64,000 nucleotides of DNA from Escherichia coli (GCF_024700885.2 NZ_CP117016.1); one strand, 5' to 3'. Shown: positions 19,556-56,486, numbered from the stretch's first letter. Numbers and translations: made by a program. The notes: a model not told the origin generated them from the letters alone.

Positions 19556-22096
19556 ATGAAAAATAGAAATCGTATGATCGTGAACTGTGTTACTGCTTCC
19601 CTGATGTATTATTGGAGCTTACCTGCACTGGCTGAGCAGTCGTCAAGTGAGATAAAGATTGTTCGCGATGAATACGGCATGCCGCATATTTATGCCAATG
19701 ATACATGGCACCTATTTTATGGCTATGGCTATGTAGTAGCACAAGATCGCCTTTTTCAGATGGAAATGGCACGTCGCAGTACTCAAGGGACTGTCGCGGA
19801 AGTGCTTGGCAAAGATTTTGTGAAATTTGATAAAGATATCCGTCGTAACTACTGGCCGGATGCTATCCGGGCGCAAATTGCTGCCCTTTCCCCAGAGGAT
19901 ATGTCCATTCTGCAAGGCTACGCTGATGGAATGAATGCCTGGATTGATAAGGTAAATACCAATCCAGAGACGCTCTTACCAAAACAGTTTAATACATTTG
20001 GCTTTACTCCTAAGCGCTGGGAACCGTTTGATGTCGCGATGATATTTGTGGGCACCATGGCAAACCGCTTCTCTGATAGCACTAGCGAAATTGATAATCT
20101 GGCACTGCTAACGGCTTTAAAAGATAAATATGGTGTATCACAAGGCATGGCGGTATTTAATCAGTTGAAATGGCTGGTAAACCCATCAGCGCCAACCACT
20201 ATTGCCGTACAAGAGAGTAGCTACCCACTTAAATTTAATCAGCAAAACTCGCAAACAGCAGCTCTGTTGCCACGCTACGATTTACCTGCACCAATGCTTG
20301 ACCGACCAGCAAAAGGGGCGGATGGCGCACTGCTGGCGTTAACAGCAGGGAAGAACCGGGAAACTATTGCTGCACAATTTGCACAGGGTGGTGCCAATGG
20401 TCTGGCGGGGTATCCAACGACCAGCAATATGTGGGTGATCGGCAAAAGCAAAGCCCAGGATGCGAAAGCAATCATGGTAAATGGTCCGCAGTTTGGCTGG
20501 TATGCGCCTGCGTATACTTATGGTATTGGTCTGCACGGTGCTGGTTATGATGTCACTGGCAATACACCATTTGCCTATCCTGGGCTGGTTTTTGGTCATA
20601 ATGGTGTGATTTCCTGGGGATCAACGGCAGGTTTCGGCGATGATGTCGATATTTTTGCTGAACGGCTGTCGGCAGAGAAACCAGGCTACTACTTGCATAA
20701 TGGTAAGTGGGTGAAAATGTTAAGCCGTGAGGAAACCATTACGGTGAAAAATGGTCAGGCAGAGACCTTTACTGTCTGGCGTACGGTGCATGGCAACATT
20801 CTCCAAACTGACCAGACGACACAAACGGCTTACGCTAAATCCCGCGCATGGGATGGTAAAGAGGTGGCGTCTTTGCTGGCCTGGACTCATCAGATGAAGG
20901 CCAAAAATTGGCAGGAGTGGACACAGCAGGCAGCGAAACAAGCACTGACCATCAACTGGTACTATGCTGATGTAAACGGCAATATTGGTTATGTTCATAC
21001 TGGTGCTTATCCAGATCGTCAATCAGGCCATGATCCGCGATTACCCGTTCCTGGTACGGGAAAATGGGACTGGAAAGGGCTATTGCCTTTTGAAATGAAC
21101 CCTAAGGTGTATAACCCCCTGTCGGGATATATTGCTAACTGGAACAATTCTCCCCAAAAAGATTATCCCGCTTCGGATCTGTTTGCCTTTTTGTGGGGGG
21201 GGGCAGATCGCGTTACGGAGATCGACCGACTGCTTGAGCAAAAGCCACGCTTAACTGCTGATCAGGCATGGGATGTTATTCGCCAAACCAGTCGTCAGGA
21301 TCTTAACCTGAGGCTTTTTTTACCTACTCTGCAAGCAGCGACATCTGGTTTGACACAGAGCGATCCGCGCCGTCAGTTGGTGGATACATTAACACGTTGG
21401 GATGGCATCAATTTGCTTAATGATGATGGTAAAACATGGCAGCAGCCAGGCTCTGCCATCCTGAACGTTTGGCTGACCAGTATGTTGAAGCGTACCGTAG
21501 TGGCTGCCGTACCTATGCCATTTGATAAGTGGTACAGCGCCAGTGGCTACGAAACAACCCAGGACGGCCCAACTGGTTCGCTGAATATAAGTGTTGGAGC
21601 AAAAATTTTGTATGAGGCGGTGCAGGGAGACAAATCACCAATCCCACAGGCGGTTGATCTGTTTGCTGGGAAACCACAGCAGGAGGTTGTGTTGGCTGCG
21701 CTGGAAGATACCTGGGAGACTCTTTCCAAACGCTATGGCAATAATGTGAGTAACTGGAAAACACCTGCAATGGCCTTAACGTTCCGGGCAAATAATTTCT
21801 TTGGTGTACCGCAGGCCGCAGCGGAAGAAACGCGTCATCAGGCGGAGTATCAAAACCGTGGAACAGAAAACGATATGATTGTTTTCTCACCAACGACAAG
21901 CGATCGTCCGGTGCTTGCCTGGGATGTGGTCGCACCCGGTCAGAGTGGGTTTATTGCTCCCGATGGAACAGTTGATAAGCACTATGAAGATCAGCTGAAA
22001 ATGTACGAAAATTTTGGTCGTAAGTCGCTCTGGTTAACGAAGCAGGATGTGGAGGCGCATAAGGAGTCGCAGGAAGTGTTGCACGTTCAGAGATAA
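19556..22096 (+). CDS. pac: Penicillin G acylase precursor (846 aa)
   Basis: Signal peptide ([26 protein letters not shown]), length and sequence match my memory of E. coli penicillin G amidase. Confidence 0.9.
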
Positions 22097-29179: not shown

Positions 29180-30556
29180 TTACGGGGTCGCTCGCGGACG
29201 GGAGGACTGCATTGGAATCGCCCAGATAATCCCCGCACCAATCACCAGCAGCGCGGCAACAAACCACAATCCACTGTTAAAGCTGCCGGTCAGATCTTTC
29301 AACCAGCCGATCATAAACGGACTTAACGCTGAACCAATGTTGCCTGTGGCGTTGATCACCGCAATACCGATCGCTCTTGCCCGCAGGCTGATGGACTGAT
29401 CCGGTGTTGTCCAGAAAATCGCCATTGCGCTGAATGATCCGGTCGAAGCCATAATGATCCCCAGCATCTGGAGCATGTTGTGATCAGTTGCCGAAGCCAG
29501 TAACCAACCAGCGGCAGCGAACAAATAAGGAAGGGCGGTGTGATGCCTTCGTTCCTGGCGGCGATCTGAGTGACGGCTCCAGTAGATCATCCCGAGAATG
29601 GTACAAATCTGCGGTACGGCGGCCAGCAGGCCGATGGTGATATTACTGCTGCCCTGATTAAAGCTTTGCAGGATCTGCGGTGTCCAGATGCTGATCGCAC
29701 TAAGTGTGTTGGTCAGGCAGAAATACGCCAGGGTATACATCATCACCACCGGAGTGAAGATCTCCCGCCACATGCTGCGTTGTTGCATGGCATGGTGGCT
29801 GATGGCTCCCTCAGGCTGAACCAGCGTCAGACGATCGTTATCCATCATCTCTTGCAGGCATTTTTTGTCTTCTTTCGTCAGCCACTTAGCTTTGTCCGGT
29901 GAGTCATCAAGCCAGAACCACACCATGACGCCGAGTAATACCGACGGGAAGCCTTCCAGCAAAAACAGCCACTGCCAGCCTTTTAATGCCATTACGCCAT
30001 CCAGCGACAAAATGTAGCCGGAAACGATAGAGCCCAGCGCTGTCGTTACCGGCATTGCCACCATAAACAAGGCGTTGGCACGGGCGCGGAAATAGGCCGG
30101 AAACCAGAAGGTTAAATACAGCAGAATGCCAGGCAGAAAGCCGGCTTCGGTAATGCCAACCAGTATACGCAGTACGTACAAGCTGGTGGGGCCAGTGGCA
30201 AACATGGTAGCAGTAGAGGCGATGCCCCAAAGCACCATGATGGTGGCGATCCAGCGCCGTGCACCGACAATACTCAGCATAATGTTGCTGGGAATGCCGA
30301 AGATGACATAAGCGGCGTAGAACAGGGTGGTGGCGAGGCCAAACATGGTGGCGCTCAGACCGAGGTCGCGTCCCATCGTGAGTCCGGCAAAGCCGATGTT
30401 GATGCGATCAAGGAACGAGAAGATAAACAGCACGAACAGAAAGACGATCAGGCGGCGAAACAGCTTCTTAATAACCGCCTGTTGTCCGGTAGTCAGCGCT
30501 TTATGCTGATTCGCCGGATCGATACTCTCCGGTATGGCAGGTGAGGTGTCGCTCAT
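29180..30556 (-). CDS. hpaX: 4-hydroxyphenylacetate MFS transporter
   Basis: 458-aa MFS protein; cluster position. Confidence 0.85.
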   Translation of the reverse strand: MSDTSPAIPESIDPANQHKALTTGQQAVIKKLFRRLIVFLFVLFIFSFLDRINIGFAGLTMGRDLGLSATMFGLATTLFYAAYVIFGIPSNIMLSIVGARRWIATIMVLWGIASTATMFATGPTSLYVLRILVGITEAGFLPGILLYLTFWFPAYFRARANALFMVAMPVTTALGSIVSGYILSLDGVMALKGWQWLFLLEGFPSVLLGVMVWFWLDDSPDKAKWLTKEDKKCLQEMMDNDRLTLVQPEGAISHHAMQQRSMWREIFTPVVMMYTLAYFCLTNTLSAISIWTPQILQSFNQGSSNITIGLLAAVPQICTILGMIYWSRHSDRRQERRHHTALPYLFAAAGWLLASATDHNMLQMLGIIMASTGSFSAMAIFWTTPDQSISLRARAIGIAVINATGNIGSALSPFMIGWLKDLTGSFNSGLWFVAALLVIGAGIIWAIPMQSSRPRATP

Positions 30557-54205: not shown

Positions 54206-54883
54206 ATGAAGTGGGACTGGATTTTCTTTGATGCCGATGAAACGCTGTTTACCTTTGACTCATTCACCGGCCTGCAGCGGATGTTTCTTGATTACAGCGT
54301 CACCTTTACCGCTGAAGATTTTCAGGACTATCAGGCCGTTAACAAGCCACTGTGGGTGGATTATCAAAACGGCGCGATCACTTCATTACAGCTTCAGCAC
54401 GGGCGGTTTGAGAGCTGGGCCGAACGGCTGAACGTCGAGCCGGGTAAACTCAACGAAGCCTTTATTAATGCGATGGCGGAAATCTGTACGCCGCTGCCGG
54501 GCGCGGTTTCTCTGCTTAACGCCATTCGTGGCAACGCTAAAATTGGCATCATCACCAACGGCTTTAGCGCCTTGCAGCAAGTGCGTCTGGAACGCACGGG
54601 CCTGCGTGATTATTTCGATTTGCTGGTGATTTCCGAAGAAGTTGGCGTTGCCAAACCGAATAAGAAAATTTTCGATTATGCGCTGGAACAGGCGGGCAAT
54701 CCTGACCGTTCACGCGTGCTGATGGTTGGCGACACTGCCGAGTCCGATATTCTCGGTGGCATCAACGCCGGGCTTGCGACCTGCTGGCTGAATGCGCACA
54801 ATCGCGAGCAACCAGAAGGCATCGCGCCTACCTGGACCGTTTCTTCGTTGCACGAACTGGAGCAGCTCCTGTGTAAACACTGA
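54206..54883 (+). CDS. yjjG: HAD-family pyrimidine 5'-nucleotidase YjjG
   Basis: HAD motif I (FFDADETLF); 225 aa; synteny. Confidence 0.85.
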
Positions 54884-54973
54884 TTGCCTCCCCCCCGTTG
54901 ATGGGTAAAATAGCCGCAATTTTTCGTTTTCAACAAGCGCGGCGCGATGCCGCTTACTCAAGAAGAAAGAATT

Positions 54974-55048
54974 ATGACGTTGTCTCCTTATTTGCAAGAG
55001 GTGGCGAAGCGCCGCACTTTTGCCATTATTTCTCACCCCAATAATTAA
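54974..55048 (+). pseudogene. prfC: prfC 5' fragment (first 22 codons of peptide chain release factor 3, then NN-stop) at the prophage junction
   Basis: [22 protein letters not shown] matches the RF3 N-terminus as I recall it; the frame then reads AAT AAT TAA instead of continuing DAGKTT. Confidence 0.6.
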
Positions 55049-55202
55049 GCCAAAATTAAAGCTCTTTTACTCTTTCAAAATCCTTTCAGTTAATTGAGGT
55101 TGAGCCATATAACTCATTTAAATACATTTAGTTATGTGGCTTCTTTAATTGAAAATTCTTTCATGTAACTTTAAATCGATCTGCTTGCTTTCATCAAAAA
55201 TC

Positions 55203-55259
55203 TGTACATGTGCTTGTACATAATGTACAAAACAGCAGAGGTGTTTTTTTATTTGTACA
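55203..55259. promoter_or_regulatory. Four TGTACA hexamers within 57 bp immediately upstream of the integrase gene
   Basis: tgtaca at 55203, 55215, 55224 and 55254, read directly; candidate recombinase or regulator binding sites. Confidence 0.4.
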
Positions 55260-55268
55260 AGGTGAGTA

Positions 55269-56486
55269 ATGGCGCTGTCTGATGCGTGGTTGCGTTCAGT
55301 CGTTGGAAAGGAACGTGATAAGGTTTTGGTTAAATCCGATCGTGATGGTCTGTCTGTCAGAGTATCACCGAAAGGTCGCGTAGTGTTCCAATATCGTTAT
55401 CAATGGGCAGGGAAAGGTGAGCGCCTTGATATCGGAACTTACCCGGCAACTGGATTAAAAGAGGCCAGAGAAGAAGTTATCCGTCTCCGTGGTGAACTCG
55501 AGTCAAACCGCAATCCACGATTAGTCAGGCAGGCTGAAAAACGAAAAGCTACTGAAGCCATGACGGTAGAGTCTGTGATCCGTGCCTGGTATGAAGCATA
55601 TTGTGTAAAAAATAAAAAAGGTTCTGAACAGATACTCCGCTCGTTTGAGCTGCACCTGTTCTCTAAAATCGGGAATATCCCTCACGATGCAGCTACATTG
55701 CATGATTGGTTAGAAGTCCTGGAGCCTCTTAGCACTAAGACTCCAGCAATAGCAGACCGATTGCTAATTAACGCAAAGCAGGCCCATGTCTGGGCGTATA
55801 AGAGAAAGCTCATTGAAACTCGCCCACTGTCGGATATCACGGGTAAAGATATGGATATCCGTAAAGGTCAGAAGAAACGGTTTCTGACACATGATGAAAT
55901 TAAAATCCTTTATGCTGCGATCGATGGTTCTCGAATGGTTCCTAAATACCGGGCCTTCATTAAACTATTGCTGCATTTTGGCTGCCGTAGTTCAGAGCTA
56001 ATTACCGCCAGGGTGGACGATTTTGATTTCATTAATAAAGTATGGACTGTACCACCAGAACGACATAAGACTGGGGAGATAACAGGCGAACCGCTAAAGC
56101 GGCCCATTATTGAACCGGTTGAAGAGCTTATAAAGTACGCTATTTCTATGAACAATGGTTCCGATATGCTTTTTACTAAGGAAGGAAGCAGGGAACCCGT
56201 TGGTCGGACATCATTGCAGTCGCTGCCTTACAATTTAATGCAGTACGCATGGCGGCGTTTGGGGTATCAATTCCCTCATTGGTCTCTTCATGATTTGAGG
56301 CGAACAGCACGAACAAACTTTTCTGATCTTACTGCGCCTCATATTGCAGAAATAATGCTAGGTCATAAACTGCCAGGGGTATGGCAGGTTTATGACAAGA
56401 GCGATTATTTAGATGAACAGCGTAAAGCTTACCAGGCATGGTGGGAGAGAGTTGAATCGATAGTTACTTGTACTTGTTCAGACTAG
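55269..56486 (+). CDS. int: Tyrosine-type phage integrase (P4-like family)
   Basis: 405 aa; N-terminal arm-binding-like region and C-terminal catalytic motifs (..HDLRRTARTN.., ..LGHK..); sits at the junction with truncated prfC. Confidence 0.85.
   Translation: MALSDAWLRSVVGKERDKVLVKSDRDGLSVRVSPKGRVVFQYRYQWAGKGERLDIGTYPATGLKEAREEVIRLRGELESNRNPRLVRQAEKRKATEAMTVESVIRAWYEAYCVKNKKGSEQILRSFELHLFSKIGNIPHDAATLHDWLEVLEPLSTKTPAIADRLLINAKQAHVWAYKRKLIETRPLSDITGKDMDIRKGQKKRFLTHDEIKILYAAIDGSRMVPKYRAFIKLLLHFGCRSSELITARVDDFDFINKVWTVPPERHKTGEITGEPLKRPIIEPVEELIKYAISMNNGSDMLFTKEGSREPVGRTSLQSLPYNLMQYAWRRLGYQFPHWSLHDLRRTARTNFSDLTAPHIAEIMLGHKLPGVWQVYDKSDYLDEQRKAYQAWWERVESIVTCTCSD

Follow-up and report, generated by a model that had tools for sequence, protein, structure and literature searches.

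In phage lambda, attP carries short non-core repeats on both of its arms (P1, P2 and P'1-P'3), arranged in tandem about one helical turn apart, and the integrase, a heterobivalent tyrosine recombinase, reads them through a separate domain at its N-terminus. In the prophage KplE1, attL and the promoter of intS overlap, and both IntS and TorI repress this promoter, with a similar situation in P4 (PMC2951348). For Gifsy-1, only the Xis sites have been mapped, as three direct imperfect repeats (PMC2603039), and the integrase of the cdtI phage has been classed in the DUF4102-bearing IntSXT subgroup, within the cluster that targets prfC (PMC8138268). In the full texts that we searched on TGTACA in connection with integrases or attP, and on prfC phages, we found no description of the arm sites considered here, and we therefore present these sites as newly described, on a principle that is already known.

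Here, we analyze a 64-kb stretch of Escherichia coli chromosome (hereafter "the window"), which contains a lambdoid prophage in the 5' end of prfC, with four TGTACA hexamers ("boxes") just upstream of its integrase gene, int. These boxes belong to the int/att module of a heterobivalent integrase, the attP of which bears such boxes on either side of its core. Judging from the comparisons presented below, they are most likely arm-type (accessory) binding sites of the prophage's own integrase, and, by analogy with KplE1 and P4, we put the chances at about even that they are also autoregulatory sites of int. No new mechanism is revealed, and specialists would anticipate such sites ahead of an integrase gene that faces outward.

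The prophage in prfC and its TGTACA boxes

The same element is found in an identical genome (NZ_AP021946), where a 45.1-kb prophage lies between two copies of ATTATTTCTCACCC. This sequence is annotated in Stx phage records as a 14-bp insertion duplication, and is present once in the attP of free phages. In the window, 5,424 of 5,426 E. coli genomes match up to position 55038, beyond which homology to those with an unoccupied site is lost. The same int occupies the prfC site in 698 of the 5,426 complete E. coli genomes, and it is also found in phages Ayreon, cdtI and 2H10 and in Stx1a and Stx2c phages. The stump of prfC that remains at this end carries the annotation of a partial pseudogene in NZ_AP021946. 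The core lies to the left of an int gene that is read outward, which places the boxes in the 230 bp of att arm separating the two. The features at this end of the prophage are as follows, in coordinates of the window:

54974-55042, + strand: truncated prfC 5' fragment, with 22 native codons, 2 phage-derived codons and a stop
55025-55038, + strand: attL core and crossover identity, ATTATTTCTCACCC, 14 bp, repeated at attR
55039-55268, + strand: int-proximal att arm, 230 bp, 29% G+C, from the core to the int start
55202-55209, + strand: box 1, cTGTACAT, putative arm-type site in forward orientation, invariant in 21 variants
55214-55221, + strand: box 2, TTGTACAT, putative arm-type site, 12 bp after box 1, with which it forms a tandem pair
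55223-55230, - strand: box 3, TTGTACAT, putative arm-type site, pairing with box 2
55253-55260, orientation ambiguous: box 4, TTGTACAA, 15 bp before the int ATG
55269-56486, + strand: int, heterobivalent tyrosine integrase of 405 aa, read away from attL

The hexamers themselves start at 55203, 55215, 55224 and 55254, forming a 57-bp cluster (55203-55259); the int ATG follows at 55269, such that the boxes precede it by 66 to 15 bp. A perfect 17-bp palindrome, TTGTACATAATGTACAA (55214-55230), is made up of boxes 2 and 3, and box 4 abuts the Shine-Dalgarno sequence of int, AGGTGAG (55260-55266). When oriented by their flanks, the boxes share the consensus TTGTACAT followed by A or T. A sequence-only reading of this DNA had called attention to four TGTACA hexamers within 57 bp just upstream of the int start; they are indeed there, and their clustering goes beyond anything obtained by simulation. 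Specifically, the largest number of TGTACA copies in any 57 bp was two in whole-window first-order Markov simulations (n = 200), and none of 20,000 simulations with the AT-rich arm's own dinucleotide content reached four. The 64-kb window as a whole holds eight copies, compared to 11.5 expected, and four of these eight fall within the cluster.

We note that the boxes are also well conserved. In an alignment of the attL arm across 21 distinct variants, all of them from related prophages, each of the 24 box positions is invariant, with substitutions falling in the gaps that separate box 1 from box 2 and box 3 from box 4; relatives on viral contigs are 98-99% identical, and many of these end at the int start. 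Since the whole arm is ~93-95% identical among relatives, the power of this conservation is limited, and we take it as supporting, not decisive.

The integrase is equipped with a domain of the kind that binds such sites. Residues 3-90 match PF13356 (Arm-DNA-bind_3) with E = 1.9e-16 and 60.4 bits, against a cut-off of 27, and this N-domain, which also matches the solved N-domains of the CP4-like integrases 3JTZ and 3JU0, is followed by central and catalytic domains (PF22022 and PF00589, respectively).

Both ends of the prophage carry additional genes. Directly downstream of int lies a gene for a 710-aa CHAT-domain protein (56620-58752, + strand), which is possibly a defense or moron gene, and this slot is one of variable cargo, being taken up by a 720-nt ORF in 2H10 and by an unrelated 438-aa ORF on the other strand in the Stx1a phage. 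Just inside attR of the identical genome, an annotated TIR-domain anti-phage reverse transcriptase (L002 21689-23293) is a further cargo or defense gene at the prophage end. It sits beside a dinI-like gene, the promoter of which is overlapped by a LexA-box-like CTGT-N8-ACAG at this far end of the prophage (L002 about 21020-21045, next to attR).

Boxes on both arms of attP and in distant homologues

As the phage is integrated, only the int-proximal half of attP is present in the window, and this half is attL. At attR of the identical prophage, four further TGTACA copies are found within ~120 bp of the core, the last of them shortly before the start codon of the rebuilt prfC. The complete arrangement can be seen in free phages with the same integrase, namely Ayreon (Int 100% identical), cdtI (99%) and 2H10 (98%), in each of which four boxes, the core, four further boxes and int form one contiguous stretch. 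In the case of Ayreon, the far-arm boxes are found at 8574, 8643, 8671 and 8683, the core at 8757, and the int-proximal boxes at 8935, 8947, 8956 and 8986, with int starting at 9001. We excluded one more TGTACA, the ninth, from this count, because its position (8528) is to the left of where homology to other phages ends. The far-arm homology among phages ends just outside the outermost box, which is the expected boundary of a functional attP module. These positions would thus delimit a functional attP of ~430 bp for a common group of prfC-inserting lambdoid phages, including Cdt-I, Stx1a and Stx2c converting phages, and they yield a concrete list of predicted sites for the integrase of this group.

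Each arm contains a 23-bp double-box module with 12-bp spacing (TTGTACATATGATTGTACATAAT and CTGTACATGTGCTTGTACATAAT), and the two modules are identical at 19 of the 23 positions. Along attP, the far-arm boxes point left, left, right and right, and those of the int-proximal arm right, right and left, followed by the last box of ambiguous orientation. The core ATTATTTCTCACCC and its flanks are without TGTACA-like sequence, and neither arm of attP contains a match to the strict IHF consensus (WATCAR-N4-TTR).

With four boxes at each end, the arms account for 8 of the 14 TGTACA copies in the complete prophage (45,122 bp in NZ_AP021946), all of these at a distance of no more than 230 bp from an att core, compared to six copies, or 0.13 per kb, in the other 44.6 kb. 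A comparable density across the whole element, which the sequence-only reading had named as grounds for refutation, is therefore not what is seen.

We also drew distant homologues of the integrase from phage GenBank records. For integrases that are 31-46% identical, attP adjoins int, and int is read away from attP, just as in the window. The layout shared by these distant phages comprises a tandem pair of boxes 11-12 bp apart, situated 40-75 bp before the int start codon, together with an RBS-proximal box like box 4 in most of the homologues examined and a further pair of boxes on the other arm. The box motifs are as follows:

SPN3UB (Gifsy-1-like) and Klebsiella phage 5: GTGTCCA
An Stx2a phage: GTGTACA(C)
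Sf101 and MagusPhagus: GTGTACCA(AAT)
phi296 (a Traversvirus, Sepvirinae) and two Klebsiella phages: G-N-GTACA

The boxes of SPN3UB are non-palindromic, and within its pairs they are repeated in the same direction, as would suit arm-binding domains that act as monomers but not a repressor that binds as a symmetric dimer. In all pairs of phages but one, the N-terminal 70 residues of Int are more similar (38-80% identical) than the rest of the protein (27-60%). Sf101 and MagusPhagus have the same box motif, and their Int N-domains are 61% identical, whereas the rest of Int is 31% identical and the excisionases are ~30% identical, which points to the Int N-domain, not the excisionase, as the reader of the boxes. 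Taken together, these comparisons suggest that the DUF4102-type arm domain of this integrase subfamily reads GTAC-centered boxes in a conserved pattern, and such a pattern could help to predict att arms in related prophages and islands.

As a separate observation, SPN3UB and Klebsiella phage 5 both carry a LexA-box-like CTGT-N8-ACAG, TACTGTTTGCATGTACAGT, ~30 bp upstream of the first int box (L011 1377-1395 and L012 about 108-126), hinting at SOS control of int in these two phages.

The sequence-only reading had offered, as one of its two suggestions, that the hexamers are arm-type integrase sites, and this suggestion gains support from the presence of boxes on both arms, from the arm-binding domain of Int, from the co-inheritance of the boxes with int/att (discussed below) and from the layout in the homologues. 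In the resulting model, attP comprises four far-arm boxes, a 14-bp core with strand exchange inside prfC, and four int-proximal boxes. By analogy with lambda, the N-terminal Arm-DNA-binding domain of Int would hold the boxes while its C-terminal domains hold the core, such that Int and DNA-bending proteins could fold the arms into an intasome, leading to integration; the intasome together with an AlpA/Xis-like factor would lead to excision. Int, and possibly the excisionase, bound to the arm boxes would also damp the expression of int, for which there is precedent in KplE1 IntS and P4 Int.

Other candidate readers of the boxes

The alternative that fares best against these data, although we regard it as improbable, is that the boxes are the sites of the RDF, a 64-aa AlpA/Xis-like protein, which would bend the arm for excision and repress int. 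The relevant features are the following:

58860-59054, - strand: AlpA/Xis-like HTH protein of 64 aa, candidate RDF, convergent with int, in the early-left transcript
55072, 55083, 55158 and 55188 (55072-55193), + strand: four CTTTCA repeats, candidate excisionase/RDF sites

The AlpA/Xis-like gene is the only excisionase candidate and lies on the opposite strand, 2.4 kb from int; its product has an HTH_17 match below the family cut-off and is 28% identical to the Gifsy-1-type Xis of SPN3UB. The gene is always found with int in close relatives (in Stx phages, it co-occurs with int at ~91% DNA identity), and distant homologues also carry weakly related small HTH proteins. Because the excisionase is inherited with int in all close relatives, co-inheritance alone does not tell which of the two proteins reads the boxes. 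There is also precedent for sites of this kind, as excisionases of the same family bind repeated attP sites, of which the three direct imperfect repeats bound by Gifsy-1 Xis are an example, and TorI binds five attL sites and represses intS. However, characterized excisionase sites are head-to-tail repeats on one arm, about one helical turn apart, whereas the TGTACA boxes are present on both arms and in both orientations, and, as seen with Sf101 and MagusPhagus, the box motif tracks the Int N-domain better than it does the excisionase.

The CTTTCA repeats provide a better candidate set for the excisionase. All four are on the same strand of the int-proximal arm and absent from the far arm; the two nearest the core, from which they are 34 bp away, have a spacing of 11 bp. 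Nearly all of the 21 variants keep them: three of the copies have a substitution in a single variant, and the copy at 55158 is invariant. Judged by their arrangement, these repeats fit the one-arm direct-repeat pattern of RDF sites better than the TGTACA boxes do, and they may be the sites of the AlpA/Xis-like excisionase.

Far less probable is a host dimeric regulator that would bind the TGTACA-N6-TGTACA pairs, which resemble a TyrR box, and control both int and the phage-supplied prfC start. The TyrR box consensus is TGTAAA-N6-TTTACA, and the TGTACA-N6-TGTACA module, which is found on both arms, matches it at 10 of the 12 specified positions. However, the homologues in Salmonella and Klebsiella phages keep the spacing with non-palindromic direct repeats (GTGTCCA and GTGTACCA), which are unfit for a symmetric host dimer and thus make the resemblance to TyrR sites only a minor rival. 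In addition, boxes 3 and 4 and two of the far-arm boxes lie outside such pairs.

LexA and CRP sites within the boxes were considered by eye and rejected, the former because CTGT-N8-TTGT does not qualify as a LexA box, and the latter because TGTGA-N6-TCACA is absent.

We give still less credence to the possibility that CI or Cro binds both its operators and the int boxes through a common TGTAC half-site, thereby coupling int to the lysis-lysogeny switch. The starting point for this proposal is a TGTACC-N5-GGTACA palindrome that the sequence-only reading had placed between the repressor and cro-like genes, 8 kb away from the cluster. The palindrome is present at 63303-63319, where it is one of three CI-type operators in the immunity region:

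62549-62565: CI-type operator TGTATCTCAAGGGTACA, OL side, just downstream of cI, kept in SfV and Ayreon, outside the att system
62611-63285, - strand: S24-peptidase (CI/LexA-type) repressor gene
63303-63319: CI-type operator TGTACCGATAAGGTACA, OR, outside the att system
63353-63369: CI-type operator TGTATATCGGAGGTACA, OR, adjoining the cro start
63376-63576, + strand: cro-like gene

These three operators (62549, 63303 and 63353) are exactly the 17-bp TGTAY-N7-GTACA sequences of the immunity region, and they are found at the same places in SfV and Ayreon; the SfV record marks its cI-cro gap, within which the counterpart of the palindrome lies, as a "putative operator region". When up to one mismatch is allowed, a scan for TGTAY-N7-GTACA returns the three operators and one chance site at 30164, and the sole match in the int region has two mismatches and is not a box pair. 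While the operator half-site does resemble TGTAC/GTACA, and boxes 2 and 3 do form a perfect 17-bp palindrome, the operators have N7 spacing, whereas the boxes are spaced by N5 (the palindrome at 55214-55230) or N8 (boxes 1 and 2), and never by N7.

The mosaic structure of related phages leads to the same conclusion. The Stx1a phage LC727891 has the same int/att, with an arm that is ~93% identical, and keeps all eight boxes, four at each end, although its CI is only 32% identical and the gap between its cI and cro genes, which has repeats of GATAAAT type, is devoid of TGTAC sites. SfV presents the converse case: it has the same repressor, cro and three operators (95% identity), but a different int, in an int-xis module of lambda/P22 style, and its attP region lacks TGTACA altogether. 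By this comparison, the boxes are inherited with int/att and not with the immunity region, and, given both the different spacing and the independent inheritance, the shared TGTAC would be a coincidence of two independent modules. The homologous phages whose boxes are non-palindromic direct repeats likewise argue against CI or Cro. The idea that one regulator, either the repressor or the AlpA-like protein, co-regulates immunity and int is therefore contradicted by the spacing and by the LC727891 and SfV mosaics, and a tempting link from the immunity switch to int is removed as false.

Two other sequences in this part of the window deserve mention. The first is a dyad, TTGAAGGTTCATTTCAA (TTGAA-N7-TTCAA), which lies at 63326-63342 between the two OR operators and has N7 spacing with other half-sites; it is nearly identical in SfV, with one substitution, in the spacer, and might be a lower-affinity third operator, a Cro site or promoter sequence. 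The second is an isolated TGTACA at 62110, the only copy in the prophage part of the window outside the cluster, which forms part of GGTACC-N13-TGTACA-N4-GGTACC (62091-62125) in an untranslated stretch upstream of a yfdP-like gene.

Finally, a functionless chance cluster in AT-rich DNA, for which one could invoke the easier recurrence of short AT-rich palindromes in an arm of 29% G+C, has a negligible probability in view of the 0 of 20,000 local-composition simulations with four copies, the second four-box cluster at the other end of the prophage, and boxes that are invariant in 21 variants, in a layout kept in distant relatives.

Expression of int and comparison with known systems

The reading of the boxes as arm-type sites of Int also bears on the control of int. 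The order of elements is like that of KplE1 and P4, with the core followed by the boxes (55203-55259) and the int ATG at 55269 on the + strand, and with the excisionase candidate located apart. As int is read away from attL through the boxes, with box 4 touching the RBS, Int probably damps its own gene. In a scan of the + strand for a consensus sigma-70 promoter, covering 54950-55350, the free-phage attP and the attR side, no candidate passed; sub-threshold + strand candidates were seen by eye at 55149-55176 (TTGAAA-16-TTAAAT) and at 55219-55224 (CATAAT). With no promoter placed in the arm, the regulatory half of our model is weaker than the recombination half. We note, moreover, a candidate for the prfC promoter at 54884-54911, and as no terminator was found between this candidate and int, read-through from the prfC promoter into int is possible in the lysogen.

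One further element of the arm may be relevant to this read-through:

55092-55152, + strand: hypervariable inverted repeat, with a stem formed by 55103-55114 and 55130-55141

These 61 bp occur in 17 versions among the 21 variants, with flanks that are ~95% conserved. Across the variants, the + strand hairpin shows 95.6% pairing, with three compensatory pairs and many G-U pairs. The compensatory series are G-C/A-U and C-G/U-G/U-A, and there is an invariant U-G pair that becomes a mismatch if the repeat is read on the other strand. The calculated fold is -20.1 kcal/mol (z = -4.8) for the + strand, compared to -11.3 kcal/mol for the - strand; an Rfam scan of 54700-55400 gave no match. The inverted repeat may act as RNA in the int leader, or it may be a dyad that co-evolves with a protein bound to it; as a cis-acting RNA, the hairpin could insulate int from read-through from the prfC promoter.

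At the other end of the prophage, the phage supplies prfC with a new start and eight different N-terminal residues (MTSLLAAE... vs MTLSPYLQE...; L002 20790-20860, - strand), and two TGTACA boxes lie 19-41 bp upstream of this new start. Given this proximity, binding of Int there might affect the expression of host RF3. A dual use of the boxes, both in building the intasome and in repression by Int at the two ends (of its own int at attL and of prfC at attR), appears unlikely to us; if true, it would tie host release factor 3 to the recombination state of the prophage.

Taking the above into account, the att system of this prophage can be compared with those already described. It resembles that of lambda in the short non-core repeats on both arms, with tandem copies about one helical turn apart, and in a heterobivalent tyrosine integrase that is predicted to read these repeats through a distinct N-terminal domain. 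It differs in having eight boxes and an attP of ~430 bp, compared to five and ~240 bp in lambda, in a motif that is palindromic at its center (TGTACA), and in an arm domain that is of the DUF4102/Arm-DNA-bind_3 type and not lambda's. In addition, int is here read away from att, beside the arm, whereas that of lambda is read towards att from pL/pI.

In gene order, the closer parallels are KplE1 (CPS-53), with IntS and TorI, and P4, with Int and Vis, in both of which int lies beside attL, is read outward and is uncoupled from the excisionase gene, with arm-type sites occupying the stretch from the core to the start of int. It is from this likeness that we predict negative autoregulation by Int and the excisionase. 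Both of these elements insert at tRNA genes, whereas the present prophage inserts inside the coding sequence of prfC, the 5' end of which is rebuilt, and the site motifs of KplE1 also differ, as the P' sites of IntS share TAAA.

The closest studied homologue of the integrase itself is that of Gifsy-1 (46.6% identity), the core of which is also 14 bp long, and the Gifsy-1-like phage SPN3UB similarly has 2+2 boxes upstream of int and a pair on the other arm, although its box motif is GTGTCCA, compared to TTGTACAT here, and its target gene is a different one. The integrase of the SXT/R391 ICEs falls into the same cluster as the cdtI integrase, which is 99% identical to that of the window and bears the DUF4102 domain (PMC8138268); SXT likewise inserts at the 5' end of prfC, for which it provides a substitute, but is a conjugative element, whereas the element in the window is a phage. 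The likeness to SfV is that of the immunity module only, where the CI/Cro operators at 62549, 63303 and 63353 are found at the same places. The att system of the window is thus the lambda-type arm-site principle in an integrase of DUF4102/IntSXT type, combined with a gene order of the KplE1/P4 type.
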